Shown here one piece after another: positions 9,570 through 44,603 of a stretch of 64,000 nt of DNA. This DNA is from Candidatus Krumholzibacteriota bacterium (GTDB lineage: Bacteria; Krumholzibacteriota; Krumholzibacteriia; Krumholzibacteriales; Krumholzibacteriaceae): assembly GCA_016933255.1 (NCBI GenBank), contig JAFGBF010000015.1, forward strand, positions 79,725-143,724, written 5' to 3'. A model generated the notes under the pieces. That model worked only from the letters and a program-made list of their open reading frames with translations. It had not been told where the DNA came from and searched no databases. The position numbers and the translations under genes were made by a program. Each line of letters begins with the position of its first letter. Within the stretch, counting starts at the first letter, position 1.

Positions 9570-10142
9570 ATGTCTATCAAGGGAACAGAGACTGAAAAAA
9601 ACATTCTGAAAGCGTTTGCGGGGGAGTCGCAGGCGAGAAACCGTTACACCTATTTTGCCTCCCAGGCAAAAAAAGAGGGTTATGTCCAGATCTCTTCGAT
9701 CTTCGAAGAGACAGCCGATCAGGAAAAAGAACACGCAAAACGTCTATTTAAACTTCTTGAAGGCGGAGAGATCGAGATCACCGCGGGTTTTCCTGCAGGA
9801 GTAATCGGGAAGACTGAAGAGAACCTGGCGGAGGCTGCCGGAGGAGAAAATCACGAATGGACTACAATGTATCCGGGCTTTGCGAAAGTGGCCGCTGCGG
9901 AAGGGTTTGATCACATCGCAAAGATCTTCGAAGCGATAGCAGTCGCGGAAAAGCAGCATGAGAAACGTTATAAGGATCTGATGGATAATATCAATTCCGG
10001 GCGCGTTTTCAAACGTGAGGGCGCGGTCGTCTGGCGCTGCCGGAATTGCGGTTATCTGGAAGAGGGAACGGAAGCGCCTGAAATATGTCCGGCATGTGCC
10101 CATCCGAGAGCCCACTTCGAGATCCTTGGAGAGAACTGGTAA
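9570..10142 (+). CDS. rbr: Rubrerythrin.
   Basis: Ferritin-like di-iron domain with E..H motifs, plus a C-terminal rubredoxin-like CxxC...CxxC (WRCRNCGY...CPACAHP). Confidence 0.9.
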
Positions 10143-20312: not shown

Positions 20313-20349
20313 AAAAAATTGCCCGGCAGAGTCTTGCCGGGCAAAGGAT
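20313..20349 (-). terminator. Rho-independent terminator downstream of the FHA gene.
   Basis: Perfect 10-bp stem TTGCCCGGCA/TGCCGGGCAA with a 6-nt loop. On the minus strand it is followed by TTTTTTTATACC. Confidence 0.7.
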
Positions 20350-20373: not shown

Positions 20374-20874
20374 TCATTGAAAGCGGAATCTCAATTCGTA
20401 GTTGCCGATTCCGATAAGATCATTATTATTGATTTTGATCTTATGGATTTCCTTCCCGTTCAGGTTCGTTCCGTGGCGGCTGTTGAGGTCTTCCAGAAAA
20501 TATGATCCGTTTTCATTTATTATCTGGGCATGCTCGGGAGAGACGAACGAATGATCAAGACAGATATCGCAATCTACGCTACTGCCAAGCAGCGTAGATT
20601 TTTTACTGATCTCTATTTTGAGTCCTGAAAAACATCCATTTGTTATTTCCAGGACTGCTTTGCTTTTTTGCCCGTTTTTTTTCTGATTGCTGTTTTTCGT
20701 TTTATGAATATGTCCGCGTGTAGAATTTTTTGTCGTCACGTTATCACCTTTCATCAATTGAAGCCCAACCACTTTATTGTCATCAAGGTGTCGCGCAGCA
20801 ACCCGCATAAATCGTACCACAGAGAGGAAAAGGGACTGCAGCTGATCATTTGTCCGGGAAAGATGACCGGGCAT
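20374..20874 (-). CDS. FHA-domain protein (phosphothreonine-binding), last gene of the exosortase locus.
   Basis: C-terminal FHA fold (LLGSSVDCDICLDHSFVSPEHAQIINENGSYFLEDLNSRHGTNLNGKEI). Basic N-terminal region. Confidence 0.7.
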   Translation of the reverse strand: MPGHLSRTNDQLQSLFLSVVRFMRVAARHLDDNKVVGLQLMKGDNVTTKNSTRGHIHKTKNSNQKKNGQKSKAVLEITNGCFSGLKIEISKKSTLLGSSVDCDICLDHSFVSPEHAQIINENGSYFLEDLNSRHGTNLNGKEIHKIKINNNDLIGIGNYELRFRFQ

Positions 20875-21131
20875 CCGCGATATAAAAAAGGCGGATATTC
20901 AACTGCTGGAAACTATACGGAACTATCGGAAACCGAATATCGAAACTGCGTCCTAGATCGGCAGCTATCGGATCCAGGCAGATACTTCCGACAGGCAGCC
21001 GATTTTATCAGTCTAAAATTTGCGGGAGGCCGAAAGACTGTTGCTTAATACGACAGAACGGCATCAGAGTGATGATCGGTTTTCAGGTCGAGCTGGTAAA
21101 GGGACGAGATATTAAGGCCGGCCGTCATGCC

Positions 21132-22562
21132 TTACTTTTTCTTCTTGGATGACCTGAAATCCTCAGGGTCGATCTCGTGTTTTTTCATCAGATCGTGAAG
21201 AGTAGGCCGGCTTATCTTGAGTTCCTGCGATGCGGCTGAGACATTCCCGGAGAATCTGAGTAATACATCGATTATCATTCTTTGTTCCAGGTCTTCACGG
21301 GCTTCTTTGAGAGAGACGCCCGCCTCCGGAGGAATACGGGCAGGAGCGGATTCTGCCTGTTTATTTTTTTCGTCTTCAGGGCCGGGAAAAACAAGGTCCA
21401 TGTCCTCCGGCTGAATGATCCTTCCAGATGTCATGATCACAGCTCTCTTGACTCTGTTTTCTAGTTCGCGTACATTTCCGGGCCATGAGTGGCTATAGAG
21501 GACATTGCGCGCCGATTGGCCGAAGGCTCTTACATTTCTTGAGAACTCGGAATTAAAATGATGAAGGAAATGCATCGCAAGCAGGAGTATATCCTGCCCT
21601 CTGTCACGAAGAGGAGGAAGGGATATATTGATCGTGTTTATCCTGTAGTAGAGATCTTCCCTGAAAGTCCTTTCGCCGATCATCTTCGAGAGGTCCCTGT
21701 TAGTAGCGGCGATCACTCTGATATCGAGCTGTATCTGCTGCTGCCCTCCCACTCTTTCTATTACGTGGTCCTGAAGGAATCTGAGGATCTTGACCTGAAG
21801 AGCCAGGGGAAGTTCGCCGATCTCATCGAGAAAGATAGTTCCTCCCTCAGCGATCTCGAATTTTCCCGGTTTTGAAGAGACTGCCCCTGTGAAGCTTCCT
21901 TTTTCATGGCCGAACAATTCGCTCTCAAGCAGATTTTCAGGTATTGCGCCGCAATTGATCGGTATAAAGGGTCTGTTCTTCCGCGGGCTTCTCGCATGTA
22001 TAGCCCTTGCTATAAGCTCCTTGCCGGTCCCGCTTTCACCGGTTATGAGGACCGATACATCGGTGGGAGCTATTTTCTTGACGGCGTCGAATATATCAAG
22101 CATACCCGCAGACATGGATATTATATTTTCGAATTCGTGTCCGCTCCCGGGAGAAGACTTCAGTCTGGTTATCGTCGATTCAAGGGAGTGTATGTAGGAA
22201 GCCCGGCTCAGAATAACGCGGAGTTCATCGATATCCACCGGTTTTGAGTAGAAATCGATAGCGCCCGACGCGAGGGCTCTTAGAGCGTTTTCCTTGTAGT
22301 CGTGGCCTGTTATTACGATGACCTTGATCTGCGGGTCTATCTGCAGGGCCATCTCGAGGATTTGAAACCCCTCAAACTCATCCGTGTCGCCTGTCAGAGA
22401 AAGATCCAGGATCATCAGCTGCGGCGATTCTTCTTTTACAGCATTGACAGCCTCTTCTATGGTGCGGGCCTTGATGACCTCATATTTGTTTTTAAAAGCC
22501 CATTCGAGTTGTTTGAGGATGGTCTCCTCGTCATCGACGATCAAAAGTCTGGGTGATCCCAA
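21132..22562 (-). CDS. prsR: Sigma-54-dependent response regulator (NtrC/AtoC class), PrsR-like.
   Basis: REC domain (LLIVDDEE...D). AAA+ sigma-54 interaction domain (GESGTGKE, GAFTGA) and C-terminal Fis-type HTH. Lies immediately downstream of the PrsK-like kinase. Confidence 0.8.
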   Translation of the reverse strand: MGSPRLLIVDDEETILKQLEWAFKNKYEVIKARTIEEAVNAVKEESPQLMILDLSLTGDTDEFEGFQILEMALQIDPQIKVIVITGHDYKENALRALASGAIDFYSKPVDIDELRVILSRASYIHSLESTITRLKSSPGSGHEFENIISMSAGMLDIFDAVKKIAPTDVSVLITGESGTGKELIARAIHARSPRKNRPFIPINCGAIPENLLESELFGHEKGSFTGAVSSKPGKFEIAEGGTIFLDEIGELPLALQVKILRFLQDHVIERVGGQQQIQLDIRVIAATNRDLSKMIGERTFREDLYYRINTINISLPPLRDRGQDILLLAMHFLHHFNSEFSRNVRAFGQSARNVLYSHSWPGNVRELENRVKRAVIMTSGRIIQPEDMDLVFPGPEDEKNKQAESAPARIPPEAGVSLKEAREDLEQRMIIDVLLRFSGNVSAASQELKISRPTLHDLMKKHEIDPEDFRSSKKKK

Positions 22563-22577
22563 TTGTGCCCCTTCCAG

Positions 22578-24683
22578 TTATTCTGATCCGGTTCCCGGCA
22601 GTATAATCGAGACAGAAGCGCCTTTTCCAGAAAGATTATCGATCGATATAGTGCCTCCATGTGCTTCTGCCATCGATTTACATAGAGCAAGGCCTATGCC
22701 CAGGCCGTTTTTTCGGGTCGAGCTGAATGGCTTGAAAAGGTCGTTTTTAATATAGTCAGGATCGAAGCCCTTTCCAGTATCAGACACATTGAGTCTCAAT
22801 CCGAATGGATCTTCCGAAGTAAGGCGAACCGATATCTTTCCTCCTCTCGGTGTTGCTTCTATCGAATTGAGTATCAGGTTCTCCACAATTCTTTCAATAG
22901 CGGATGGATCGATATCAGCGATTATCTGTTCAGATGGAGAATATTCAAGAGTGATATTTTTAGATCCAGCCATCGGCACAAGCTGTTCTATCTTTTCTCC
23001 TACAAGCGATACCGCTTCTGTCCGTACTCTGTTTACGGCTCCTGAATATTTGTGAGCGTTCAGAGAATTGATCAGGCTCTGCATCCTCTCTATCGATCTT
23101 TTAATCGTTATTATTGTATCTTTCTGAAATTCCTTGTTTTCCATGTTTTCTCTTGCGTTTTCAGCGGTAAGAGAAAGGATCTCGACGGTGTTTTTAAGGT
23201 CATGGATGACGAATGACGCGAACCGGTTGAACGATTCGATCTGTTTCGATTCAAGGAATCTTTCCTCCATAAGGAGGTTGTCAAGGGTGATAGCGGCCTG
23301 GTCGGCGATAGTAGCAAGGAAACTTCGGTCTTCTTCGCTGAAGGGAGCTCCTGTATCCTTTCTGCCCAGAGCTATAAAGCCCTTACACTCCTCCCCGTGG
23401 CCGAGAGGCAGAGCAGACTCGATCCATTCAGGGATATTTTCCGTATCAAGCTCGATTTTTGCTTCTGTCGAGGAGTGTTTCCTCCTGCCGGATCTTTTGT
23501 TAAATACCGTCAATTCGTCAGCTGTACACAGTTCCATCAGCCTGTTTGACGTCTCAGGAGTCCAGTCATCGCCTGTTGCTCCATAAGACGCTTCGATCCC
23601 GTTGTGGATATCGACCCATATGATGCCTCTCTGGACGATCATCGTCTCACAGAGCGATCCGATCGTGTTTGAGAGGAAATCATCTATTGTAAGGCTCGTG
23701 GCCATCAATCTTGAGAAATGACGCCACTCCTTTCGATAATTATAATTCTCAAGATAGAAATTATCATTCAGGAATATTCGAAGCTTTCTTCTCGCCCTTC
23801 CCGACATTCCGACGGCAAGCAGAAGAAATATGATAAAAATCCCTAAAACATAAAGATGGAATCTGTCATATGACATTCCGGCCAGGGCCGAGATCCACGA
23901 TATGATGGCAATCGATATAAAGTAGAGCCCGGCTACCACCACCGACACGGTCGATGATTTTTCTTTCAAAACAGGTGTCCTGATCTCGAATAGATTGTAT
24001 CTCGAATTCGCGTAGATAAAAGTTGTAGTGATGAAAATTATTCCGCAGGTTTCGACTGTCAGGAAACGCCGGTCGACCGAAGATAACGATAAAATCCGGC
24101 TCATTACCACGAAATTCAGAAATGATGCGGTTATTGTGCCGAGCATCGGGTATTTGAGAGTGACCTTGCCCTGGATATTTGCTGCTCTGTATGTGTTTTC
24201 CATGAAGTAGAGATAGCATACATTCACCAGAAGGAAAAAGATCCCGAACCCTTTGCCCAGCCAGGTAAAGACGATCTGATAAAAATATCCGTTTTCCTCG
24301 AAGGATATGCTTCTGATGATATAATGAAGCGGAGTGATGAGGCCGATCGCGGAAAAAATGATCAGAATGGTCAGAATCCCTGTGATCCTGTTTTTCAGCG
24401 GGTTATCTCCACGGTTCCGTGCGAAGAAATAGAAAAACGGAAGACCGAAGGCAGGGGATAATAGAGCGGCCACAAGCAGCAGTCGCAAAAATACCTGCGC
24501 CTGCTCGGGAGAATCCGCCCTTAGCAGAAGTCCCTGTGCGGCGGTGAAGAAAGCCAGGATCAGCGTCGATGGGATAAAGAAAAGTTTCTGATAATTAAAA
24601 CTTCCTCTTGTCAAACCTGCCCACAAAAGGAGGACAAGCAGTCCAGATGCAGTAAATGACAGTAGCGGAGCAAACAGGGTCAT
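22578..24683 (-). CDS. prsK: Sensor histidine kinase with a long polytopic N-terminal domain; PrsK-like (exosortase-system associated).
   Basis: About 300 aa of TM helices, then a cytoplasmic region. HisKA box FVIHDLKNTVEIL. HATPase_c (GLGIGLALCKSMAEAHGG). 701 aa and gene context match TIGR02916-type PrsK. Confidence 0.7.
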   Translation of the reverse strand: MTLFAPLLSFTASGLLVLLLWAGLTRGSFNYQKLFFIPSTLILAFFTAAQGLLLRADSPEQAQVFLRLLLVAALLSPAFGLPFFYFFARNRGDNPLKNRITGILTILIIFSAIGLITPLHYIIRSISFEENGYFYQIVFTWLGKGFGIFFLLVNVCYLYFMENTYRAANIQGKVTLKYPMLGTITASFLNFVVMSRILSLSSVDRRFLTVETCGIIFITTTFIYANSRYNLFEIRTPVLKEKSSTVSVVVAGLYFISIAIISWISALAGMSYDRFHLYVLGIFIIFLLLAVGMSGRARRKLRIFLNDNFYLENYNYRKEWRHFSRLMATSLTIDDFLSNTIGSLCETMIVQRGIIWVDIHNGIEASYGATGDDWTPETSNRLMELCTADELTVFNKRSGRRKHSSTEAKIELDTENIPEWIESALPLGHGEECKGFIALGRKDTGAPFSEEDRSFLATIADQAAITLDNLLMEERFLESKQIESFNRFASFVIHDLKNTVEILSLTAENARENMENKEFQKDTIITIKRSIERMQSLINSLNAHKYSGAVNRVRTEAVSLVGEKIEQLVPMAGSKNITLEYSPSEQIIADIDPSAIERIVENLILNSIEATPRGGKISVRLTSEDPFGLRLNVSDTGKGFDPDYIKNDLFKPFSSTRKNGLGIGLALCKSMAEAHGGTISIDNLSGKGASVSIILPGTGSE

Positions 24684-26170
24684 TTTAGGTCCTTCATTCT
24701 GTTAATATGTTTTTCTGCCTCTTTTGACACATTCGATTCAGGATACATCTCTACGCATCTTTCCAGGGCCTCGACAGCTTTTCCCTTATCACCAAGTTCT
24801 TTCTCATAGATAGACGCGGCCGTAAGGAAACTTTGGGCAAGCCTGGGGTATTGCGGATATCTTGCCGGAAGCGAAAGGAGCCGTTCCGCGGTTTTTTCCC
24901 ATTTTTTCTGCAGAGAGAGAGTCCGGATGAAGTATTCTTCGGCTTTAATTCTTATTCCAGCGTCATATTCTTTTGCAGTCATCATATCATAATGCTCCAG
25001 AGCTCTCTCGTAGGCATTTTTGGCGGCGTCGGCTTCTCCCAGCTTTTCAAAATGCATGGCGATCATGAGCGGAGACTCCATTCCCTGGAAAGTAGTTGGA
25101 AAACTGGTGTATATTGATTTGTAGTGCAGAGAAGCATCTACCCAGTTGCCGCGTTTATCCGAGATATTTGCAAGCTGCCAGGTCGCTTCAACTACTCCGC
25201 TTGCCGATGAAGCATGTTCTTTTATGACCTGATTATATATTTTTTCAGCTTCATCGTATCTCTTTGCCTCCTGGTGTATCTGTCCGAGCATCAGTAGCGC
25301 GGTGACCGTCTCCTGCGAATCAGGGAATTCTTTGATTATGGCCGTCAGGATCGAAGCTGCTTTATCCTGATTGCCAAACCCGTCCATCTCTATCTTTGCT
25401 TCAATGAACATTATCGACGGCCTGTCTTTTACCGTAGGGTATTGTTCCTCCATCTCCTTCAGGAGAGCCATGGCACTATCCCATTTCCGCTGTTCGAGCA
25501 GGGCTGTGACCAGGTTAAACCTTGTCTCTTTGAGAAGGGAAGGGTCCGCCGTTGTAGATATTATATCTCTGTATATCATTTCGCCCCTGCTCAGCCAGGC
25601 AGATCTTTTATTTTTCATATCCGGGCCTAAGTACAGTTTTGAGAGCCTGATAGGGACGAGAAGATACCTTCTGTTCATCATCGATGTCTTTTCGATATCC
25701 CCGCTGCCGAGAAATTCATCCGAAAACTTTTCAAATAGTGATATTGCCGATGGAATATCCCCGATCTGTTCGGATATGAACGCTGAGGACCAAAGAGCGT
25801 TGGCACGGGCTTTGGGGATATTGCCGGAAATGGAGTAAGCTTTTTGAAAATCATCGATAGCGCTCTTAAGGCTGCCTGTCCGGAATTCGAGCTCGGCAAG
25901 CTCCATTTGAGAGGAAACAACTATCAACTCCATGCCGTCGACGCTGTCGGCGTATGATGAATACCGATCTACTATCGAACGGTAGCTTTCTACGGTTCTG
26001 TCCACGAATTCCCTGTTCGTGGTGCCTGAAGGGAGTTCACGGTTCAGTTTTCTGGCATGGAAAAGTTCTTTTTCCGCTTTATAGAGCAGTGATTTTTCTT
26101 CGCTCGAGCACGCAAAGACCATAGCGGCCATCAGCAGGACAGCTGCCAACAGATTCATTCTTTTTTTCAT
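24680..26170 (-). CDS. TPR-repeat lipoprotein, possibly a short PrsT-like protein.
   Basis: Signal peptide plus lipobox (LLMAAMVFACSS). Multiple TPR-like helical repeats. 4-nt overlap with the prsK start. Confidence 0.55.
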   Translation of the reverse strand: MKKRMNLLAAVLLMAAMVFACSSEEKSLLYKAEKELFHARKLNRELPSGTTNREFVDRTVESYRSIVDRYSSYADSVDGMELIVVSSQMELAELEFRTGSLKSAIDDFQKAYSISGNIPKARANALWSSAFISEQIGDIPSAISLFEKFSDEFLGSGDIEKTSMMNRRYLLVPIRLSKLYLGPDMKNKRSAWLSRGEMIYRDIISTTADPSLLKETRFNLVTALLEQRKWDSAMALLKEMEEQYPTVKDRPSIMFIEAKIEMDGFGNQDKAASILTAIIKEFPDSQETVTALLMLGQIHQEAKRYDEAEKIYNQVIKEHASSASGVVEATWQLANISDKRGNWVDASLHYKSIYTSFPTTFQGMESPLMIAMHFEKLGEADAAKNAYERALEHYDMMTAKEYDAGIRIKAEEYFIRTLSLQKKWEKTAERLLSLPARYPQYPRLAQSFLTAASIYEKELGDKGKAVEALERCVEMYPESNVSKEAEKHINRMKDLK

Positions 26171-26212
26171 TCTTCCTCCAGTGGTTTGATAAAGCCCGGG
26201 ATATTTAAAATG

Positions 26213-27097
26213 TCAATTCAGTCTGTTTTTCATCCTTTGCAGGAATATTACTGTTCCTCCTGCTGTTATAAGATATATGGATATCATCTCAATGACTGAT
26301 GAGACGATGTAATTGTGAATAATAAAATCGGGAGAGAGCCTTGTGGCGATCAATGCCGATTTAATGCTGATAAATGTCGTCGGGACCGTGAGAATGAACG
26401 GGATAAAAACAATAAAGAATGTCGTAGCTGGGCAATTCCAGGCGATACTTATGCTTACCCTGAAAGATCTAAAGAGGTTTGAATCGTAAAGCAGGATTGC
26501 CGGAGTAGTGTACAGGAATAACCCCTGAATAGCGAGGGCAACAGCCATACTGACGGCATAAACGGTATTACCCGCAATCGGGCTCAGACTGGCTCTGAAA
26601 TTTCCCGCGAGAAAAAATACGAGAAAGATGAAAAGGGAAGCAAATAAAGAGATCAGAAACAGCTGAAGATATTTCCCGAACGCAGCCCGGAATGCCCCGG
26701 CAAACGATAACGACCTCCCGGTGATCCCGCTGTATATGAGGACTGTCGTTGCACCCTGGAAAATTATATTTATGAATATTTCAACGAATATATCGACGCG
26801 GTCAAGAATGGGCTGCATCAGTACGATATGATCCGGAAAATGACCGAGGTCTGAGCTGGAGAGGCCGCCTATAAAGAGAGCCCAGAAGGATGATGAAGGC
26901 GGATCGAGGCTTGAAAGATATGAGATCAGGATGCCGAGATGGAGGATAAGAAAAAAGAAAGATGGAACGGCGATCCGAAAATCTTTCAGGATCGATACAG
27001 AAGTGTGGAATGTATTTATGGTTTCCTTGAATCCTCCGGCATAATCAAACCGTTTCCCAGGAGCTCCGCCGTCAATAATGAGTCTTTTCGACATCAA
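26213..27097 (-). CDS. Polytopic integral membrane protein of unknown function (about 8 TM) inside the exosortase operon.
   Basis: 294 aa with strongly hydrophobic segments throughout. ATGA overlap with the EpsI stop. No recognisable catalytic motif. Confidence 0.45.
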   Translation of the reverse strand: MMSKRLIIDGGAPGKRFDYAGGFKETINTFHTSVSILKDFRIAVPSFFFLILHLGILISYLSSLDPPSSSFWALFIGGLSSSDLGHFPDHIVLMQPILDRVDIFVEIFINIIFQGATTVLIYSGITGRSLSFAGAFRAAFGKYLQLFLISLFASLFIFLVFFLAGNFRASLSPIAGNTVYAVSMAVALAIQGLFLYTTPAILLYDSNLFRSFRVSISIAWNCPATTFFIVFIPFILTVPTTFISIKSALIATRLSPDFIIHNYIVSSVIEMISIYLITAGGTVIFLQRMKNRLN

Positions 27098-27786
27098 TCC
27101 TCGTTTCTTTGCTCTACAGGCGATGCTGATTTCAGGGCTGACATTATATCGGGGCTTATTCTTTCGATGAATCTCAACATCGTTTTTTCGGTCTTTTCGT
27201 CGCCTCCCGGCCTAACGCCTGTAGAAAAGCGGATAAACGACGCAGCCTGGGGGCGGGAAAGAAGTGTGTTCTTCATCTGATGATATTTCAACGAAAATTC
27301 ATCGGGGATGGCTTTACCGTTCATACTGAACCAGTAGATGACCAGCCTGTGGGATTTCCCGTCTGTTATTACCAATCGCTTGACGCTTTCCAGCTCATTG
27401 TTGAGATTTATCTCGATCCGGTCTTCCTTTATGATATCCCAGCCGGCACCAGGGTAACAATGTTTTGGAGAATGGATCTGCGAATTTTCCTGCTGCCGGG
27501 CGAAATACCCGAGAAAGAGTTCTATCTTTATCCCCGTTTCTCCGGTATATGAACGTACAAGCGTTGTATCTGCTCCCAGAACCCTCAGAGATTCGATCCC
27601 GATATAATAGTCATCGGAGAGATACGATCCCGTCTCTGCCGGTATGAGGCTGAAATCCGGCAAAGGAGCCTCTTCAATATCTCTTTTACGCAATCGGTGC
27701 GTATAGATCGTCAGCAATAGGAGTATTACAACAATGATGACCAGGCTGTTCAGTTTTATTTTATCCATTTCAATATCCTGATACAA
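27094..27786 (-). CDS. epsI: Exosortase-associated EpsI-family protein.
   Basis: N-terminal TM helix then a periplasmic domain. Overlaps the exosortase gene end; the likely true start is ATG 27768 (MDKIK). EpsI is canonically adjacent to exosortases. Confidence 0.55.
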   Translation of the reverse strand: MYQDIEMDKIKLNSLVIIVVILLLLTIYTHRLRKRDIEEAPLPDFSLIPAETGSYLSDDYYIGIESLRVLGADTTLVRSYTGETGIKIELFLGYFARQQENSQIHSPKHCYPGAGWDIIKEDRIEINLNNELESVKRLVITDGKSHRLVIYWFSMNGKAIPDEFSLKYHQMKNTLLSRPQAASFIRFSTGVRPGGDEKTEKTMLRFIERISPDIMSALKSASPVEQRNED

Positions 27787-28610
27787 AGAAGAAGCAGTAG
27801 GAGCCCGGCTGCAAAGACTATCAAGCCTGAAATCTCATGAATCGTTCCATCAGCAAATTCGGGTCCTATCGTGTAGGCTCCCAGTGCTGTTACAGTCAGG
27901 CGGATCGCATTTGCTGCTATCGCTACAGGTATCGATAACGCCACGAGAATGACGTTTTTCGTTTTAGAAAATCCGGAAAAAATCGTAAGAATAACAGCGA
28001 TCGTAACCATAGTCATAAGGGAACGCAGTCCGCTGCAGGCGGCGACTACTTCCAGGGTATATCCGGGAAGATGGAGTATATTGCCTTTTCTTATGACGCT
28101 TACTCCGGTTGACTGGAGGATATAAGTGCTTAACCTGGCGCTGAAAAGCTGCATAGGGAAGGTGAGTCTGTAGTAAATGATATATGGCAAAGGAACAGCC
28201 AGCACCAGAAAGAGGACAGGGAAGGCGACAATTCTGAAGATCCCCGATCCCATAAGAAAAAGAACGCTTCCCAGTATAAGGAGCGGAAAAGATATGCGGG
28301 ATGAAAAAAGCTCTGAAGCTGCCGTGCCGGCTACAAGCAGCAGAGCTGATACAAATATTATTAAAAGCCCCGTATAATAGTATCCTCCATCTGGATTTTT
28401 TCTCAGTTCCCTGCGCCGTTTCCAGAGAATAAAAACCGAGACGACAGGGATAACGATCCCGTGCTGATAATTCGGGTCATCTATCCATTGCCTGAACAGG
28501 CTGGTAATGACAGGGGAATACATTACGGATATCAGAACCAGACTCATGCCGAGCAGTATTCTTTTAAGGAGCAGAGTGCTGTTCCCCTCTTGCCTGGATA
28601 TATCGGACAA
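27756..28610 (-). CDS. xrt: Exosortase (EpsH/Xrt family transpeptidase).
   Basis: 284 aa, about 8 TM. Conserved active-site motif VVAACSGLRSLMTM (Cys and Arg). TTG start with an AAAGGAG RBS. Confidence 0.8.
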   Translation of the reverse strand: MSDISRQEGNSTLLLKRILLGMSLVLISVMYSPVITSLFRQWIDDPNYQHGIVIPVVSVFILWKRRRELRKNPDGGYYYTGLLIIFVSALLLVAGTAASELFSSRISFPLLILGSVLFLMGSGIFRIVAFPVLFLVLAVPLPYIIYYRLTFPMQLFSARLSTYILQSTGVSVIRKGNILHLPGYTLEVVAACSGLRSLMTMVTIAVILTIFSGFSKTKNVILVALSIPVAIAANAIRLTVTALGAYTIGPEFADGTIHEISGLIVFAAGLLLLLLCIRILKWIK

Positions 28611-28703
28611 CCTGTCTCCTTTATTACGATACGACTTAAGTACTGTAGAATCTTAAAGGGTGCTGCCCCGCGTTGGCAAGAAGAATGAGCCGGTCAGACT
28701 CCG

Positions 28704-28740
28704 CAATAAAAAAACGGACGCAGGTGATTCTGCGTCCGTT
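28704..28740 (-). terminator. Strong rho-independent terminator between the PEP-CTERM substrate genes and the exosortase.
   Basis: Perfect 11-bp stem AACGGACGCAG/CTGCGTCCGTT with a 6-nt loop. On the minus strand it is followed by TTTTTTTATT. Confidence 0.75.
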
Positions 28741-28767
28741 CGAGGCCTGCAAGAAAAAGAAGTGTAA

Positions 28768-29475
28768 TCACGTTTTCTTTTTCTTTCTCAGAAGAGGAGT
28801 TATCCCGAGAAGTCCCAGGCCCAAAAGGCTGAGTGTGCCAGGTTCAGGAACCGCAAAACAACTTGAATCGTGGGAATTGGGGCTGACATAGCATTTACCG
28901 TTTGAATCCATCCCTATCGCGTCAAAGTTTACATAATCGAACCCGCTGACAACGATATCGAGTAACACTTCATCTCCCCAACCCGGTTCATGGATCCATC
29001 CTTCTTCGTAATGCCACGCCTTTGCCATAGAGTTATTTATTCTTCCGGCATCATAAAAATTGAAATTTTTGATGCTCGGAAGCATAGTCTTCACATACCA
29101 GTCCGGAGCGGCCGCAGCCAGTCCGGGGTCGCCGTAGTTGTAGAATGTGTTGATCTCGATTCCGTTGATCCATACAGTCCCGGATTGTCCTGTCGGAGTA
29201 TTTATGACGACAAAGACATCCATATAATCATACGCCGGGGGAGAGGTCACCAGATCTATAGATGGAGTCACTTCGGGAAGTGTTTCCCAGTACCCGACAA
29301 CTTTCAGCTCAAAATTGGCTGATGTAGAGATCCATGAGTCCTCATCCTCGAGGGCATAATTTGCGTAGTAGTCAGAGCCTGTAATATAGGTCTGAAGCCT
29401 TGGGACCGCTGAGGCAGAATCGGCAATTAGAGACCCGGCCAATACCGCTACGGTCAGAAGTAAAATCTTTTTCAT
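28768..29475 (-). CDS. PEP-CTERM sorting-domain protein, paralog B.
   Basis: Signal peptide MKKILLLTVAVLAGS. C-terminus VPEPGTLSLLGLGLLGITPLLRKKKKT (PEP motif, TM helix, basic tail). GGAGG RBS before ATG 29475. Confidence 0.85.
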   Translation of the reverse strand: MKKILLLTVAVLAGSLIADSASAVPRLQTYITGSDYYANYALEDEDSWISTSANFELKVVGYWETLPEVTPSIDLVTSPPAYDYMDVFVVINTPTGQSGTVWINGIEINTFYNYGDPGLAAAAPDWYVKTMLPSIKNFNFYDAGRINNSMAKAWHYEEGWIHEPGWGDEVLLDIVVSGFDYVNFDAIGMDSNGKCYVSPNSHDSSCFAVPEPGTLSLLGLGLLGITPLLRKKKKT

Positions 29476-29516
29476 TCGTATCCTCCGCACACAGTTTATA
29501 GTAATCAGCATTATCA

Positions 29517-30230
29517 TTATTTTTTCTTTCTCAGAAGAGGAGTTATCCCGAGAAGTCCCAGGCCCAAAAGGCTGAGCGTGCCAGGTTCAGGAACAGGATA
29601 GAAAGCTGTCGCATCGCAATCCCACGGATTGGTGTAGGTCACGCCTCTCGCGTCGAGTCCTATAGCGTCAAAATGTGTCCAGGAGAATCCCTTGGTCACG
29701 ACTTTAAAATCGATTTCCTGGCCATGTCCGGGAAGCTGAGGTGTACCGTCAATGTGGTCATAATAGTACGCCTGATGCTGGTTGTCGAGACCACCCTCAA
29801 TCTCATAGAAATTGAACTTTCCAAAGAGAGCCGGAGGAGCAATCCGCAGATACCACGCAGGGTTTGTTTCGTCAGGCACCGCATCGCAGTAGTTATAGAA
29901 AGTGCTGATCTCCACTCCGTCTATCCAGACTGTCCCCGACTGGCACATCGGGACGCTGATCGCGATCCAGGTTCTCATCTGATCACGTTCCGGATAAGCT
30001 GAGCCCACATTCAGAGGGGAGTCCGGATTAATGTCCTCTTCCCAGTACCCCACGACCCTCAGGTCGAATTCCTGCGAATATGTGACAAACGAATACTGGT
30101 CGAGCAGGCTGTGGAATTGTTCGTATTCTGAACCAACTATATAGGTCTGGAGCCTGGGGACCGCTGCGGCAGAGCCGGTAAAGAGCGCCAGAACAAGCAA
30201 AATGCCGGCAAAAGAAGTGACTTTCTTCAT
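29517..30230 (-). CDS. PEP-CTERM sorting-domain protein, paralog A.
   Basis: Signal peptide MKKVTSFAGILLVLALFTGSAAA. Identical C-terminal VPEPGTLSLLGLGLLGITPLLRKKK. Shares internal motifs with paralog B (VPRLQTYI, TVWI.G.EI.TFYNY). Confidence 0.85.
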   Translation of the reverse strand: MKKVTSFAGILLVLALFTGSAAAVPRLQTYIVGSEYEQFHSLLDQYSFVTYSQEFDLRVVGYWEEDINPDSPLNVGSAYPERDQMRTWIAISVPMCQSGTVWIDGVEISTFYNYCDAVPDETNPAWYLRIAPPALFGKFNFYEIEGGLDNQHQAYYYDHIDGTPQLPGHGQEIDFKVVTKGFSWTHFDAIGLDARGVTYTNPWDCDATAFYPVPEPGTLSLLGLGLLGITPLLRKKK

Positions 30231-30298
30231 ATTTTTCTCTCTCAGGTGTCGGAATCGGTTATAATAAGCGAAATTATCCTATCTATGCCGGTAGTACC

Positions 30299-30313
30299 GC
30301 AATCTGCGTGCCA
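30299..30313 (-). promoter_or_regulatory. Sigma-54 (RpoN) promoter driving the PEP-CTERM gene pair.
   Basis: The minus strand reads TGGCAC-gcaga-TTGC, a perfect match to the -24/-12 consensus TGGCAC-N5-TTGC. It sits about 70 nt upstream of the ATG at 30230. Confidence 0.75.
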
Positions 30314-30393
30314 TTTTTGAAATCATTTGTATCATGTTATATAACAACATGTTATTGGTCTGCTCTATTGTTTCTGAAAGGGAGCCGGCAAAA

Positions 30394-30429
30394 GTGTAAA
30401 AGATGCCGACAGTCAGGCACCTTTTACAC
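30394..30429. promoter_or_regulatory. Inverted repeat GTGTAAAAG-N18-CTTTTACAC. Candidate enhancer (UAS) for the sigma-54 promoter and/or terminator hairpin of the upstream gene.
   Basis: Perfect 9-bp arms with a nested TGCC/GGCA. It lies 80-115 bp upstream of the -24 element, across an AT-rich bendable spacer, and about 25 nt downstream of the stop of the 30452..31054 gene. Confidence 0.5.
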
Positions 30430-30451
30430 CGTATGCCAGATGATCTTGGGG

Positions 30452-31054
30452 TCAGCGGCTTTTTCGGGTTCTTGTCGATCCAAGCGATCCGAACGAGGAA
30501 CTTCTGCTTCTTCTCGTGCTTGAACTGAATCTTGATCCAAAACCTGGGCTGTTCCTCATCGAGCCGCGGCGTACGCTGGTGTTTATGTTGATATTTACAG
30601 GGTTTACGGTCTGGCGCCGATTTCCTCCCCGGACTATGCTCGAGGGCGAAGCCATCATCCCCGTGCCTCGAGAAGCTCCATTTCTCGTCCTGCTTGTCTG
30701 AGGCATAAAGGAGCCGGATATTCCTTTATGGGTATAGCCGGAAGCTTTGAGATCCGCACTCCATCCGGTCCTCTGCTGGCGCATATTTCTGTTTCCTGCC
30801 AGCGCTGCCGGCCTTCTGAACTCTTGAGATGACCTTTCGATCCCGGTCGACCAGCCGGCAGGCCCGGTTTTTCTTGAACTGATTACAGATGAACGGGTCA
30901 CAGCTTTCTGCCAGTCTCTGTCGACTGCATCGCTCTGGTTTTTAGCCCACTTTGAGAATTCACTGTTTTCCTTTGCGCAGGCATCGGTGCCGGCAAAGAA
31001 CAACGGATTTATTACAATAACCAGCAACACTGCGGTTGCGATCAAGTAACGCAT
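30452..31054 (-). CDS. Secreted, Arg/Ser/Gly-rich low-complexity protein of unknown function.
   Basis: Clear signal peptide (MRYLIATAVLLVIVINPLFFAGTDA). The rest is basic and disordered (SRFSSSTRRSRSSSFGSLGSTRTRKSR). Preceded by a near-consensus sigma-70 promoter. Confidence 0.5.
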   Translation of the reverse strand: MRYLIATAVLLVIVINPLFFAGTDACAKENSEFSKWAKNQSDAVDRDWQKAVTRSSVISSRKTGPAGWSTGIERSSQEFRRPAALAGNRNMRQQRTGWSADLKASGYTHKGISGSFMPQTSRTRNGASRGTGMMASPSSIVRGGNRRQTVNPVNININTSVRRGSMRNSPGFGSRFSSSTRRSRSSSFGSLGSTRTRKSR

Positions 31055-31170: not shown

Positions 31171-31199
31171 ATTGTACCATACCTCGCCGGATATGTCAA
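31171..31199 (-). promoter_or_regulatory. Sigma-70 promoter (TTGACA-17-TACAAT) for the 30452..31054 gene.
   Basis: The minus strand reads TTGACAtatccggcgaggtatggTACAAT. Leader of about 110 nt to the ATG. Confidence 0.6.
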
Positions 31200-42242: not shown

Positions 42243-44603
42243 TCATCTAAGAAGGACGGCCTTGCGGCTTATCGTTTTTCCGCCGGCCTTGAGCCTATAG
42301 AAATATACTCCGCTCGAAAGATTTTCCGGGGTCCACCTCACAGTATGTTCCCCGGCGTCAAGATCATCGCAACGGAGGCATTCCACTTCCCTTCCAGCGG
42401 CGTCATAGACGCGAAGGTCGACCCGGCAACTATTTTTCAGGAAAAAGCAGATCTCCGTTCCCGGGTTGAAAGGGTTGGGGTAGTTCTGATAAAGGGCGGT
42501 TACGGCGGGGATATCCCCGGAATCAACGGTAAGGGTATCTCTGTAGAACTGCCGGTTATGGGCTGTAACTGTGATTATAAGCGAGTCGACTTCGTCCGTA
42601 ACGGGTACCGACAATGGTAGTGACAGACTTCCTCCGGGCCCGGCGATTCCCCTGCCGTAACAGATGCCGTTCCAGTACAACGCGCCGAGGCTTCCCTCTT
42701 CTTCTGTTTCTACCGGGAAAGAGACCGTACTCCTCTCGATACTGGCGTTGTGGGCCACCACCATCTGGGAAGGGGTATCGGTCCAGCCGTCCATCGCAGG
42801 GTCTCCGAGCAGATTAAGGCAGTAGAAGCACCACCTGTGGGCCCCCGATTCATATTCATCCGGGAGATCGACGAACGCGGCTGTCTCGTCTTTTGAGCGC
42901 TGGTTGGCAGATCCGAGGTCCGTATATCCTTCCGTGAAGACTGCGTCGAAAAACTCTCGCTGGAAGTGATGGGATGGGCCGTTTGTCGATCCTTCCGTGA
43001 ACCATCCGTAGCGGGAGTTGCCGACAAAGGCGGAAGCGAATCTGTTTATGCCAAGGAACTTTTCCGCTATACAGTCTAAATCGAATGCCCCTGCGTAACA
43101 ACCGTATGTATTTACGATAGGGAATTTCGCCGTTATCCCGTCATTCGTAAAGTTGGTCTCGTTGACATCGCTTATCGACAACCTCATCACTGAATTTGTG
43201 TTGGAATGACCTGCATGGCATATCCAGTTTGTTCCGGCGTTGACCTCTGCGTAGACGTCAGATTTGTACCAGTATTCGAGCTCCCTGTCATAATATTTCG
43301 TGATATTGAAATCCGGCGGGAACCCTGTCGTTGAGAATCCATATGCCGTACAGGTGCCGACCAGCTGATCCATTTCGTCTCCGCCATATGTCAATGGATC
43401 GCTGAACATCTCTTCACCGAGCAGGAGAAGATTTCTTGACTGTCCCGTTACGGGAGACTCCTGATAGCTGGCAGTCTTGTAAATGAATGTCGCCGCCTCC
43501 TCCTGTGAATCGACCGGTGCTCTGCCTATCGAGATATCGGAGAAGAGGTCTTCCTCTCCAGCTTCACCCCATTCATCGTCGGAATCCGTGTTCCAGTCTC
43601 CGTCAAGGGCGGCATAGTAGATATCCGCCGGGATGTCGGGATCATAATAGACCGACGATGAATAGACCGAGCAGGACAACCCTCTGTACGGGACAGTCGC
43701 GGGAGCTCCCGGATTCCCGTCTCCGGCAAGCAGGACGTGGGTTATTCCGCTGGCGGCGTATTCTTCTATGATCGCGTTACGGATCCTTTCCTGTGTGTCA
43801 TTTCCCGGAAAAGCACCGATAATATATTCGACTGTCATGATCTCCGAGCGCATTCCCCTTCTTGTATAGAACTCCTTCAGAGGAATAAAATCATTTTCCA
43901 GTATCGCCTTTGTTATTATCAGATATTCGTATTCATCACCCGCTGGCAGTATCGGCCCACTTATTCTGTCATAAAAAGCCTCCGCGGAAGGATTGTCGAT
44001 CAGACCTTCCAGATATTTTATTGTGGGAGCATCGGAACGCAGTAAAGACAACGCTTCAGAACTTTTTTCGGAAGGGATAGTCTCTACGATCACTTCTACT
44101 TCGCTGTAATATCCGACCCGGTTTGCCGAAGGGAGAAACCCGGCGGGAGTGAAAGACCCCGTTACGATAGGGTGCCCGCGGTAGTAGTGCGTCCTCGGTC
44201 CCGAGGATGGCGGGTGGATCCATTCTGCCGATGAATATGCGGTCTCGTTGTAGAGAAAAGCGCTTTCCGAACCTTCCGCCTCTATCCCGGGGAGAGGGTG
44301 CTGTCTCGGGCGCAGGATAATCTCTTTATCGATATCTTTCCATCCCCGGCGGTTGAACGATATAGCCGACGCGGCTTCTCCGGGAGGAAGAAGGATCCTT
44401 ATCCCCCGAAATGGAAAACTCGGACCGCCTGCTTTTCCCGCCTGAATCGTTGAAGGGAAGAAGAGGAGGGAAAAACCATCCTGAGAAGTCTCGATCCGCG
44501 GTTCGCTGAAACGATAGGTTACAGAGACCTGCCGTGCTTTGGTTGAAAAAGGAAAAGAGGCGATAAGCAGAGCCGAAGCTGCTACAAGCGGCAATCTCTT
44601 CAT
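42243..44603 (-). CDS. Secreted cysteine-peptidase-like protein (gingipain/C25-like, clan CD His/Cys dyad) with a T9SS C-terminal sorting domain.
   Basis: The C-terminus YPNPFNPGTEICFFL...LRVYDAAGREV...SGVYFYRLKAGGKTISRKAVLLR matches the Por/T9SS CTD pattern. The core has CHAGHS and YGCYAG motifs compatible with a clan CD dyad. Signal peptide present. Confidence 0.55.
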   Translation of the reverse strand: MKRLPLVAASALLIASFPFSTKARQVSVTYRFSEPRIETSQDGFSLLFFPSTIQAGKAGGPSFPFRGIRILLPPGEAASAISFNRRGWKDIDKEIILRPRQHPLPGIEAEGSESAFLYNETAYSSAEWIHPPSSGPRTHYYRGHPIVTGSFTPAGFLPSANRVGYYSEVEVIVETIPSEKSSEALSLLRSDAPTIKYLEGLIDNPSAEAFYDRISGPILPAGDEYEYLIITKAILENDFIPLKEFYTRRGMRSEIMTVEYIIGAFPGNDTQERIRNAIIEEYAASGITHVLLAGDGNPGAPATVPYRGLSCSVYSSSVYYDPDIPADIYYAALDGDWNTDSDDEWGEAGEEDLFSDISIGRAPVDSQEEAATFIYKTASYQESPVTGQSRNLLLLGEEMFSDPLTYGGDEMDQLVGTCTAYGFSTTGFPPDFNITKYYDRELEYWYKSDVYAEVNAGTNWICHAGHSNTNSVMRLSISDVNETNFTNDGITAKFPIVNTYGCYAGAFDLDCIAEKFLGINRFASAFVGNSRYGWFTEGSTNGPSHHFQREFFDAVFTEGYTDLGSANQRSKDETAAFVDLPDEYESGAHRWCFYCLNLLGDPAMDGWTDTPSQMVVAHNASIERSTVSFPVETEEEGSLGALYWNGICYGRGIAGPGGSLSLPLSVPVTDEVDSLIITVTAHNRQFYRDTLTVDSGDIPAVTALYQNYPNPFNPGTEICFFLKNSCRVDLRVYDAAGREVECLRCDDLDAGEHTVRWTPENLSSGVYFYRLKAGGKTISRKAVLLR

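Follow-up and report, generated by a model that had tools for sequence, protein, structure and literature searches.

The 64-kb window analysed here (the whole stretch of DNA, from a Candidatus Krumholzibacteriota genome) contains an exosortase gene grouped compactly with genes for sorting substrates and regulators, raising the question of whether the locus represents an exosortase type of its own or a divergent form of the XrtA/PEP-CTERM system. Nearly all described XrtA cases are accompanied by EPS genes, and no polysaccharide-synthesis cluster was found within the 64-kb window. The original prediction had placed ten genes on the minus strand; all ten ORFs were found at the coordinates first noted, and profile searches against Pfam and NCBIfam essentially bore out their identities. 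The guess of an FCB-like candidate lineage was also correct, the proteins matching those of a Candidatus Krumholzibacteriota MAG at 100% identity. A terminator had been proposed between the second substrate gene and the exosortase gene, and was confirmed as a 12-bp stem (7 GC pairs) followed by a T-run, read from 28741 to 28712 (28712..28741, minus strand). Downstream of this terminator, the genes for exosortase, EpsI, a polytopic membrane protein (TM294), a TPR lipoprotein, PrsK and PrsR are laid out as one tightly packed operon, as shown by their spacing, their overlaps and the terminator itself. The mostly tight or overlapping spacing ascribed to the locus holds from the exosortase gene to the PrsR gene, but not for the gene of an FHA-domain protein, which follows the PrsR gene after a gap of about 390 nt.

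The locus was compared with about 100 related loci (designated below by L numbers). Wherever the contig allowed, the order was invariant: PEP-CTERM substrate(s), exosortase, EpsI, TM294, TPR lipoprotein, PrsK and PrsR. This order was kept in about 50 Krumholzibacteriota/Latescibacterota loci (the clade) with exosortase identities of 50–83%, and was observed in 5 loci retrieved via the exosortase, 14 GTDB genome loci retrieved via TM294, and 37 metagenome loci with an exosortase at least 50% identical. Among the assessable metagenome loci of the clade, TM294 was present in 16/16, the TPR protein in 15/15, the histidine kinase in 11/11, the response regulator in 11/11 and a substrate in 21/21. 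No EPS genes were found within ±10 kb in the inspected relatives L002, L004, L005 and L006. The description of the locus as a self-contained module without adjacent polysaccharide genes thus stood, in that the cassette is conserved as a unit and is EPS-free both in the window and in the flanks of the inspected relatives; EPS genes may still be present in other parts of the genomes.

The exosortase (27756..28610, minus strand) passed all superfamily profiles (PF09721, 230.7 bits, cut-off 25.7; TIGR02602, 194.7 bits, cut-off 105.55; TIGR04178, 63.9 bits, cut-off 23). It carries the active site ACSGLR, and residues C192, R196 and H258 were invariant across 13 relatives. On the XrtA profile (TIGR03109) it scored 189.3 bits, under the cut-off of 208; all 10 clade relatives scored 172–196 bits, and the clade as a whole missed the cut-off by just 12–36 bits. 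EpsI is encoded by a separate gene (27094..27786, minus strand), which overlaps the 3′ end of the exosortase gene, and scored 106.1 bits on TIGR02914 (cut-off 42.8) and 144.8 bits on PF11984. The best or near-best partial scores for the exosortase and EpsI halves came from XrtW (NF038142) and XrtD (TIGR04152): the exosortase reached 196.2 bits on the former (cut-off 425) and 190 bits on the latter (cut-off 400), and EpsI 83 and 104 bits, respectively. The summed scores (about 280 and 294) fall far below these cut-offs, and identity with XrtW or XrtD was rejected. XrtW and XrtD are fused proteins, whereas exosortase and EpsI are separate genes here, and the sorting signal is of the PEP type and not the VPLPA-CTERM of XrtD. 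A literature search on XrtW found no publication. In the profile search, no cut-off of a named Xrt subtype was reached by the window exosortase or by any of the 10 clade relatives. Comparison with the Xrt subfamily models, as the original prediction had proposed, placed the protein below the XrtA cut-off and did not assign it to any other subtype; it is an XrtA-like exosortase of a sublineage without a name. NCBI labels the window protein and its relatives only as "exosortase/archaeosortase family protein".

Two PEP-CTERM tails, and no others, are encoded in the window. Substrate A (29517..30230, minus strand) matched the choice-of-anchor N model NF038141 (44.5 bits, cut-off 40) and PF07589 (27.2 bits), and ends in the C-terminal tail VPEPGTLSLLGLGLLGITPLLRKKK. 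Substrate B (28768..29475, minus strand), likewise a choice-of-anchor N protein with a PEP-CTERM tail, scored 55 bits on NF038141 (cut-off 40); its likeliest start codon is ATG 29475, which yields the 235 aa listed by NCBI, within an ORF spanning 28768–29517. Gene B has no promoter of its own and is probably co-transcribed with A. The sorting signal is the classical PEP motif (VPEPGT). Both proteins are already called choice-of-anchor N by NCBI. Such a substrate was encoded beside the exosortase in 21 of 21 clade loci, versus 1 of 33 more distant exosortases. The suggestion that these substrates form a cognate family peculiar to this system was not upheld, because the family is already curated as NF038141 and, in two further metagenomic loci (L097 and L098), also adjoins an exosortase that scores above the XrtA cut-off. 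The exosortases of these loci scored 222 and 239 bits, unlike the one studied here, and their substrates scored 107–125 bits on NF038141 versus 44–55 bits here. Like the present cassette, L098 also combines EpsI with genes that match the PrsK and PrsR profiles, all within a single compact block, but it has no TM294 or TPR gene, and its substrate gene follows that of PrsR.

Upstream of substrate gene A lies a perfect-consensus sigma-54 promoter, TGGCACGCAGATTGC (-24/-12; 30299..30313, minus strand), 68 nt from the ATG; only 2 perfect matches occur in the 64 kb, versus 0.06 expected. All 15 aligned promoter regions, from 14 loci, kept the motif TGGCAY-N5-TTGC at this position. A PrsR-box-like upstream activator site, CTGTCGGCATCTTTTACACTT (30392..30412, minus strand), is located 81 nt upstream of the -24 element. 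It has the core TGT-N11-ACA, ends in TTTACA and can be written TGTCGG-N5-TTTACAC; it was conserved in 15/15 aligned regions, where GTCG and TTAC never varied, and its PWM score of 29.2 compares with 15.8 for the next-best match in the window. A second, inverted and weaker copy, GTGTCGGAATCGGTTATAATA (30246..30266, plus strand), lies inside the 5′UTR of substrate gene A and reads ..TCCGACAC on the coding strand, 15–20 nt before the ribosome-binding site. Opposite-strand PWM matches at the equivalent position were seen in the window, L002, L005 (score 28.0), L006, L011, L012 and L015, and the CCGACAC block of the 5′UTR was kept throughout the 15 alignments of this region. Haft et al. (2006, PMC1569441) described a 17-nt motif 1 that ends in TTTACA and is followed, after a spacer of 32–92 nt, by a sigma-54 motif that lies, on average, 71 nt ahead of the start codon; in its phylogenetic profile, motif 1 matched PrsK, PrsR and PrsT. 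Compared with this text description, the box fits motif 1, and the substrate promoter fits the sigma-54 motif that follows it.

Both regulators of the cassette match equivalog models that NCBIfam assigns to the "XrtA/PEP-CTERM system". PrsR (21132..22562, minus strand), a sigma-54-dependent response regulator with REC, AAA+ sigma-54 activator and Fis-type HTH domains, passed TIGR02915 (564 bits, cut-off 502.6). The sensor histidine kinase PrsK (22578..24683, minus strand; multi-TM N-terminus, GAF, HisKA and HATPase) passed TIGR02916 (311.1 bits, cut-off 300). The position of PrsT is occupied by a 496-aa lipoprotein (24680..26170, minus strand) with the lipobox VFAC in MKKRMNLLAAVLLMAAMVFAC and detectable TPR families. 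Its identity with PrsT was rejected (31.4 bits on TIGR02917, cut-off 312.2), and since the exosortase also stays below the XrtA cut-off, the locus falls outside strict curated membership of the XrtA system on two parts.

The system closest in overall design is XrtA/PEP-CTERM with PrsK-PrsR-PrsT (Haft et al. 2006, PMC1569441), with which the cassette shares a Cys/Arg/His exosortase, an EpsI encoded separately, PEP-CTERM substrates of the classical kind, equivalogs of PrsK and PrsR, and a TPR lipoprotein adjoining the kinase. In both, a sigma-54 promoter is found about 70 nt ahead of a substrate gene and is preceded by a box that ends in TTTACA. That system has been studied experimentally in floc formation by Zoogloea and Aquincola; in Aquincola, RpoN was needed for pepA transcription, and flocculation was lost in prsK and prsT mutants (PMC9850573). 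The present cassette differs from it in its exosortase score (189 bits versus the XrtA cut-off of 208), in a TPR protein of half the length of PrsT that fails the PrsT model, and in having no adjacent EPS genes. Further differences are that its substrates are cassette-encoded instead of scattered over the genome, that it has the additional TM294 gene and the second, inverted box downstream of the promoter, and that its hosts are Krumholzibacteriota/Latescibacterota instead of Proteobacteria.

TM294 (26213..27097, minus strand; 294 aa) gave no match to Pfam or NCBIfam profiles. It had been described as an 8-TM protein; about six hydrophobic helices were found instead, with a predicted CysZ-like fold. 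The protein is part of a family of about 450 clusters that no model covers, with the signature motifs SFWAL, HYPxH, PFxxTxP and SPD/E. All 14 genome loci retrieved via TM294 hold the cassette, and its presence in every assessable clade locus agrees with the strict co-occurrence that had been looked for. Distant relatives were located directly upstream of a TPR, PrsK/PrsR or sigma-54 response regulator gene in 7 of 7 examined cases (L022, L023, L024, L025/26, L028 and L029), with neighbours that include PrsK (324 and 333 bits), PrsR (578 bits), XrtA (212.5 bits) and an XrtA-system deacetylase (348 bits); relatives are also found in XrtA loci that lie among EPS genes. Of 23 more distant exosortase loci, 13 lacked TM294; one of these is L098, where exosortase, EpsI, PrsK and PrsR occur without it, and the Prs module can therefore work without TM294. 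The original prediction of an uncharacterised polytopic component thus stood as regards the clade, but the protein is not specific to an exosortase subtype. Its synteny makes TM294 not a subtype marker but a conserved fourth member, as yet without a name, alongside TPR, PrsK and PrsR. Its most likely role, judged from synteny and the fold model, would be that of a membrane component with a permease fold resembling CysZ which, together with the TPR lipoprotein, feeds an envelope signal or small molecule to PrsK.

At the two ends of the locus lie genes with a looser association. The small FHA-domain protein (20374..20739, minus strand; ORF 20374–20874) matched PF00498 (66.9 bits, cut-off 20.7), and its best named family, FhaB/FipA, reached just 74 bits versus a cut-off of 125. 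Judging from an alignment of eight loci, its start is most likely GTG 20739, giving 121 aa. A candidate sigma-54-type promoter, TGGTACGATTTATGCG (20804..20819, minus strand), lies 64 nt before this GTG, with TGG(T/A)A(C/T)-N5-(T/A)TGC kept in 8/8 loci, and the gene is followed by an intrinsic terminator (20319..20344, minus strand; 10-bp stem with 7 GC pairs, then T7). With a promoter of its own and the gap noted above, the FHA gene is not tightly spaced after the PrsR gene. No PrsR-box PWM match was found near this promoter; the recurrent upstream motif is GCCGGATC-like and differs from the PrsR box. The FHA gene was present in 8 of 11 genome/Logan loci, 3 of 11 metagenome clade loci and 0 of 10 assessable distant loci, and was absent from L004/L017, L005 and L018. 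It is usually followed by an MFS/PTR2 transporter gene, and a 247-aa lipoprotein gene or MscS on the opposite strand sometimes lies between it and the cassette. The co-occurrence proposed for both accessory genes was thus borne out for TM294 but not for FHA, which roughly every second clade locus has and which lacks a PrsR box; instead of being a cassette component, as first suggested, it would be a separately transcribed, sigma-54-dependent neighbour outside the core. At the other end, RS200 (30452..31054, minus strand) is a secreted, very basic, S/R/G/T-rich protein of 200 aa with a signal peptide and no match to Pfam or NCBIfam profiles. Homologues in 10 loci share DFxxWA..D..W, TRxRxGPxRG and a basic tail, and RS200 was found in 8 of 13 assessable clade loci (metagenome sample) versus 0 of 26 outside the clade. 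RS200 is a conserved neighbour upstream of the cassette, though an optional one. A TG-extended sigma-70-type promoter upstream of it (TTGACA-17-TACAAT; 31171..31199, minus strand) matches 11/12 consensus positions, the best in the region.

Two other functions can be considered for the accessory proteins. Because TM294 directly follows exosortase and EpsI in the clade, L023 and L024, because one homologue matches PF10110 (glycerophosphodiester phosphodiesterase membrane domain, 1.4e-7), and because the loci are compact and EPS-free, TM294 might act as a permease or flippase of the CysZ/CTL kind, supplying or exporting the acceptor molecule of the exosortase and replacing the missing polysaccharide machinery. 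We regard this as possible though doubtful, since in L022, L025/26 and L029 the available 1.5–9 kb of upstream contig contains no exosortase, while the TM294 relative remains attached to TPR/PrsK/PrsR or a sigma-54 regulator, and since relatives also occur in the EPS-bearing loci L022, L024 and L025. The fold itself comes from a medium-confidence model (pLDDT 73; the most conserved motif, residues 67–101, below 50). The closest solved fold is that of the CysZ sulfate permease (PDB 3tx3, 6d9z), a stand-alone protein of similar size; TM294 has its own family motifs and no detectable sequence similarity to CysZ (hhalign probability < 1%), the Foldseek E-values of the fold comparison were not significant, and its genomic context is signalling and protein sorting, unlike the sulfur assimilation of CysZ. 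It is also conceivable that the FHA protein is a regulator integral to the system, perhaps one that modulates PrsR/sigma-54 output in a phosphothreonine-dependent way, given that its gene lies directly downstream of that of PrsR in 8 of 11 genome/Logan loci (down to about 54–57% exosortase identity), that its promoter is kept in 8/8 loci, and that no terminator separates the two genes while a strong one follows FHA. This appears rather improbable in view of its absence from L004/L017, L005, L018, 8 of 11 metagenome clade loci and all 10 distant loci, the genes that can intervene, the different upstream motif, its association with the MFS/PTR2 gene and the lack of a Ser/Thr kinase gene in the locus.

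As to the cassette as a whole, a new exosortase type that merits its own Xrt letter, is EPS-independent and has its own substrate family and accessory proteins (TM294, FHA) would account for the failure of the window protein and 10 relatives to reach any named cut-off, the unspecific NCBI naming, the strict clade-specific gene order with its substrate adjacency, and the absence of EPS genes from the 64-kb window and from the ±10 kb around the inspected relatives. We nevertheless consider it unlikely. The XrtA scores fall short only narrowly, and those of other loci run through the cut-off as a continuum (L071, 206; L080, 209; L024, 212.5; L097, 222); PrsK and PrsR are XrtA-system equivalogs, the sorting motif is the classical PEP motif, higher-scoring choice-of-anchor N proteins are neighbours of exosortases above the XrtA cut-off, TM294 relatives occur in EPS-embedded XrtA loci, and FHA is not core. 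Of the distinct Xrt subtype originally proposed, the position below every named cut-off thus stood, whereas the near-XrtA score, the XrtA-system regulators and the classical signal spoke against separation. A chance juxtaposition or a decaying, functionless remnant has almost no probability, as it is contradicted by the identical order in about 50 loci at 50–83% exosortase identity, by intact ORFs with invariant catalytic residues and by the conservation of non-coding regulatory elements.

The locus is therefore a divergent XrtA-type PEP-CTERM/exosortase system and not a categorically new one, and we think it likely that this Krumholzibacteriota genome carries here a compact, self-regulating sorting cassette of the XrtA lineage. 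Going by family membership, the membrane kinase PrsK would phosphorylate PrsR, an NtrC-type sigma-54 activator. By analogy with the proteobacterial Prs circuit, PrsR would then bind the TGTCGG-N5-TTTACAC box and activate the bicistronic unit that encodes the two choice-of-anchor N proteins, both small beta-sandwich proteins. Following Sec export, as the general family model predicts, the Cys/Arg/His exosortase with EpsI would recognise and cleave the PEP-CTERM helix, and the cleaved substrates would be handed to a cell-surface acceptor.

All ten minus-strand ORFs listed in the original prediction exist. PrsR matched TIGR02915 (564 bits; cut-off, 502.6), PrsK matched TIGR02916 (311 bits; cut-off, 300) and EpsI matched TIGR02914 (106 bits; cut-off, 43). 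The 496-aa TPR lipoprotein scored 31 bits with the PrsT model (cut-off, 312). The exosortase, Xrt (27756–28610), matched PF09721 (231 bits) and TIGR02602 (195 bits; cut-off, 106), and carried the TIGR04178 signature and the ACSGLR motif; residues C192, R196 and H258 were invariant when 13 relatives were compared. The two PEP-CTERM proteins, substrates A (29517–30230) and B (28768–29475), were also identified as choice-of-anchor N proteins (NF038141, 55 and 44.5 bits; cut-off, 40), and the FHA-domain protein was confirmed by NCBIfam/Pfam searches. No NCBIfam or Pfam family was found for a 294-aa membrane protein (TM294, 26213–27097) or a secreted basic 200-aa protein (RS200, 30452–31054). Eight transmembrane helices had been predicted for TM294, but it has about six hydrophobic helices. 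Two start codons were also corrected, that of substrate B most likely being ATG 29475 and that of the FHA gene GTG 20739. Strong intrinsic terminators are located after the second substrate gene (28741–28712) and after the FHA gene (20344–20319). An exact-sequence look-up of substrate A matched no record, and the source was recognised through homologues. A Candidatus Krumholzibacteriota MAG encodes proteins 100% identical to the exosortase, TM294 and both substrates, which NCBI names “exosortase/archaeosortase family protein”, “hypothetical protein JW746_05270” and “choice-of-anchor N protein”, respectively.

The prediction that no polysaccharide genes adjoin the locus extended to the entire 64-kb window, in which no polysaccharide cluster was found. 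The cassette is flanked by genes for an MFS/PTR2 transporter, a gamma-glutamyltransferase and SppA on one side and by those for glutamate dehydrogenase and PEP-utilising enzymes on the other, and the remainder of the window consists of housekeeping genes and peptidases. The sole polysaccharide-related matches were an Alginate_exp-type outer-membrane porin (44878–46248, plus strand) and a PMT_2 (GT39-like) glycosyltransferase (62151–63740, minus strand), both isolated genes outside any EPS cluster. Of all ORFs in the window, just two have a terminal PEP-CTERM tail, and neither a tRNA nor an Rfam family was detected in it. A C25 peptidase (42243–44603, minus strand) bears a T9SS C-terminal sorting domain, which fits the FCB-like lineage proposed earlier. 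Since three related loci (L002, L004 and L006) likewise have T9SS cargo genes beside the cassette, two C-terminal-signal sorting systems appear side by side in these organisms.

Conservation of the cassette was assessed in three independent locus samples. The first comprised five loci (L001–L007) found through exosortase homologues (55–100% identity) in Krumholzibacteriota, Latescibacteria and an unclassified closed genome (CP070727.1). All showed the same order: substrate gene(s), Xrt, EpsI, a membrane protein of ~290 aa, a TPR protein of ~500 aa, a histidine kinase of ~700 aa and a response regulator of ~480 aa. The second came from searching 185,579 species-representative genomes with a TM294 alignment, which yielded 14 loci from Krumholzibacteriota, Latescibacterota or unclassified MAGs, with one labelled Patescibacteria; gene order was the same in 14/14 wherever the contig allowed. 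The third, a metagenome scan with the exosortase alignment, yielded 80 loci, which were divided into 37 with Xrt at least 50% identical (hereafter the clade) and 43 with Xrt 35–46% identical. Among assessable loci, TM294 was present in 16/16 of the clade and 10/23 of the more distant group, the TPR gene in 15/15 and 9/20, the kinase gene in 11/11 and 5/13, and the regulator gene in 11/11 and 5/11, respectively. A choice-of-anchor N gene lay upstream in 21/21 and 1/33. These counts indicate that the seven-gene core is a unit and that adjacency of the substrate is specific to the clade.

It had been proposed that the locus represents a distinct exosortase subtype with its own cognate substrate family. 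The window exosortase reached none of the cut-offs for XrtA (189.3 bits; cut-off, 208), XrtW (196.2; 425) or XrtD (190; 400), and those of the fused types remained far off even when the EpsI-half scores (83 for XrtW and 104 for XrtD) were added. The XrtA scores of ten other clade members were 172–196. The distant relatives straddle the XrtA cut-off as a continuum (L071, 206; L080, 209; L024, 212.5; L097, 222; L084, 236; L098, 239), and a separate kind of exosortase is not demonstrated by these scores. The claim of an own substrate family was not borne out, since in L097 and L098 choice-of-anchor N proteins (107–125 bits) adjoin exosortases that pass the XrtA cut-off. Because of this continuum and of these substrate neighbours, the clade appears to be a divergent XrtA-like branch, missed by present subtype models. 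The substrates carry a classical PEP-CTERM sorting signal (consensus, PEPGTLSLLGLGLLGxxPLLRRKK), in which P-E-P did not vary among 62 sequences. Our literature search found no papers on exosortase in Krumholzibacteriota, on PEP-CTERM in Latescibacteria or on XrtW, and what was found on “choice-of-anchor” concerns other families.

The FHA protein, originally predicted to be part of the system, is not a core component. Its gene was present in 3/11 assessable metagenome loci of the clade and 0/10 of the distant group; among the genome and Logan loci, it follows PrsR in the window, L002, L006, L008, L009, L010, L011 and L015, and is absent in L004/L017, L005 and L018. All eight FHA copies have a sigma-54-type promoter, TGG(T/A)A(C/T)-N5-(T/A)TGC, ~65 nt before the aligned start codon. 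No match to the position weight matrix (PWM) of the PrsR box described below was found in the FHA upstream region, where a GCCGGATC-like motif recurs instead. From this promoter, the FHA gene is probably a sigma-54-dependent neighbour, and the evidence does not support its membership of the system. An MFS/PTR2 gene usually accompanies it downstream; co-transcription of the two was considered and rejected, given the strong terminator after the FHA gene. In some loci, a gene for a 247-aa lipoprotein lies between PrsR and FHA. A gene of this kind (~247 aa; 33–46% identity between loci), absent from the window, directly follows PrsR in several relatives (L004, 17560–18303; L006, 17588–18274; L010, 16102–16839; L011, 15828–16625; L018, 7806–8546), and may be another optional accessory.

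RS200 proteins are secreted, extremely basic, rich in S, R, G and T, and probably disordered; they share a signal peptide, an N-terminal DFxxWA..D..W motif, a TRxRxGPxRG motif and a very basic tail. Roughly 60% of clade loci (8/13) have RS200 upstream of the cassette, and it occurred nowhere else in the sample (0/26 distant loci); in the window, the gene has its own near-consensus sigma-70 promoter (31199–31171). RS200 is an optional upstream neighbour but, judged by the shared sequence features, a real family. Genes of ~200 aa upstream of Xrt in L004 and L005 were considered as RS200 homologues and rejected, as they encode choice-of-anchor N proteins.

A perfect sigma-54 consensus, TGGCACGCAGATTGC, lies at 30299–30313 (minus strand), 68 nt upstream of the substrate A start codon, ATG; two such perfect matches occur in the 64 kb, against 0.06 expected. 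When the 15 regions upstream of the first substrate gene in 14 loci were compared, five conserved blocks emerged: (C/G)TGTCGGnATnnTTTACAC with invariant GTCG and TTAC; usually a GGGG-N7-CCCC palindrome; an AT-rich stretch; TGGCAY-N5-TTGC; and TATAAnGAAATCCGACAC in the 5′UTR, followed by the ribosome-binding site and ATG. The palindrome is located ~10 nt downstream of the upstream box and before the −24 element in most loci, and is degenerate in the window. The PWM of block 1, the putative PrsR box, scored 29.2 at 30412–30392 (minus strand), and the next-best site in the whole window scored 15.8. With the same PWM, block 5 proved to be a weaker inverted copy of this box (30246–30266, plus strand), with equivalents in L002, L005 (28.0), L006, L011, L012 and L015. 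Thus, two convergent boxes, ~125 nt apart, bracket the sigma-54 promoter. We found no description in the literature of an inverted box downstream of the promoter, which may serve in looping, repression or fine-tuning.

In the published system, a 17-nt motif ending in TTTACA is followed 32–92 nt on by a sigma-54 motif, whose mean distance from the start codon is 71 nt; the motif was found in Proteobacteria only, and its phylogenetic profile matched exactly those of PrsK, PrsR and PrsT (Haft et al. 2006, PMC1569441). Compared with this published text description, the window has the same architecture, with a spacer of 81 nt and 68 nt to the ATG. By this analogy, we infer a chain that would run from PrsK through PrsR and sigma-54 to the substrate genes. 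Substrate B lacks its own promoter and probably shares a transcript with A. The other perfect sigma-54 consensus of the window, TGGCACACAGGTTGC (55084–55098, minus strand), lies ~55 nt upstream of a gene (about 54173–55026, minus strand) for a lipoprotein carrying a He_PIG Ig-like domain. About 30 nt farther upstream lies a GACGTTTACAC element, without a full PrsR-box match there, and the lipoprotein gene is possibly a member of this or a different sigma-54 regulon.

Downstream of the terminator, the genes from Xrt to PrsR overlap or are closely spaced. They are preceded by just a weak sigma-70-like match, and the PWM detected no PrsR box upstream of this operon in the window. A PrsR-type box and TGGCATccctcTTGCA were found upstream of Xrt in L004 (CP070727.1) only, ~13 nt apart between the substrate and exosortase genes (9878–9926); the substrate gene's own promoter is hidden there in an assembly gap. 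This arrangement suggests sigma-54 autoregulation of the Xrt–PrsR operon in the CP070727.1 lineage.

TM294 had no sequence match in Pfam, NCBIfam or PDB, including a profile search of PDB sequences. PF10110 matched one of the 21 family members tested (1.4e-7), and this link is therefore a weak hint only. When 1.84 billion representatives were searched exhaustively with the profile, 454 clusters were detected at E ≤0.001 and 28 at ≤1e-30; the family numbers ~450 clusters at 50% identity. All members are stand-alone proteins of about 260–310 aa that share a HYP and an F-x-P-E motif. Alignments of the distant relatives diverged too far to serve as the seed of a metagenome scan, and the contexts of seven were fetched one by one. 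L022 contains genes for a sugar transferase, PEGA and fn3 proteins, the TM294 relative, TPR (802 aa), PrsK (324; cut-off, 300) and a PrsR-like regulator; L023, Xrt, EpsI, the relative and TPR; L024, XrtA (212.5; cut-off, 208), EpsI, an XrtA-system deacetylase (348; cut-off, 276), the relative and TPR; L025/26, a sugar transferase, PEGA, fn3, the relative and a sigma-54 response regulator; L028, the relative and TPR; and L029, fn3, the relative, PrsK (333) and PrsR (578). Thus, the family tracks TPR/PrsK/PrsR, whether or not an exosortase is adjacent and whether or not EPS genes are present. L098 is an exception, having Xrt–EpsI–PrsK–PrsR but no TM294, and the family is therefore not universal. 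An fn3-domain protein of ~510–720 aa repeatedly precedes the relative in distant loci (L022, 6414–7973; L025, 7449–8984; L029, 2–1525; L024, 3627–5783) and is itself preceded in L022 and L025 by a PEGA/DUF5683 protein and a Bac_transf sugar transferase. These neighbours make up a second conserved context of the membrane protein.

These data qualify the prediction that the membrane protein is a component of the exosortase locus: it was conserved in every assessable metagenome locus of the clade, but the wider family follows the Prs module, also where no exosortase is adjacent. We prefer to read TM294 as a permease-like membrane protein that partners the TPR lipoprotein and PrsK; that it supplies the exosortase acceptor is a live alternative. 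The AlphaFold model (pLDDT, 72.7; pTM, 0.75) leaves the most conserved motif (residues 67–101) poorly defined, and no sequence link to CysZ was detected (hhalign of the family profile against E. coli CysZ; probability, 0.2%). TM294, at present annotated as hypothetical and belonging to an unmodelled family, is a candidate fourth component alongside TPR, PrsK and PrsR, which it consistently accompanies.

As a whole, the sequence comparisons describe what appears to be a compact XrtA-like cassette that has no EPS genes around it, is confined to Krumholzibacteriota/Latescibacterota, encodes its choice-of-anchor N substrates and has a conserved PrsR/sigma-54 circuit. Three findings are new relative to present annotation: TM294 as a family of unnamed Prs-module partners, the second, inverted PrsR box within the 5′UTR, and the RS200 family. 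Described at first from Proteobacteria alone, the PrsR-box/sigma-54 circuit is kept in these phyla with an unreported second, inverted box. Exosortases are widespread, and to our knowledge the acceptor molecule, the role of EpsI and the signal sensed by PrsK are not established. A bolder and rather improbable extension is that the cassette is a minimal polysaccharide-independent exosortase system, in which a CysZ/CTL-like TM294 and the TPR lipoprotein would deliver or sense the acceptor and the inverted boxes would form a new activation/repression switch. If true, no smaller natural system would allow both the exosortase acceptor and the PrsK signal to be identified. With substrate, sortase, EpsI, regulators and cis-elements in ~9 kb and no polysaccharide genes, the locus offers a natural minimal cassette for heterologous reconstitution.
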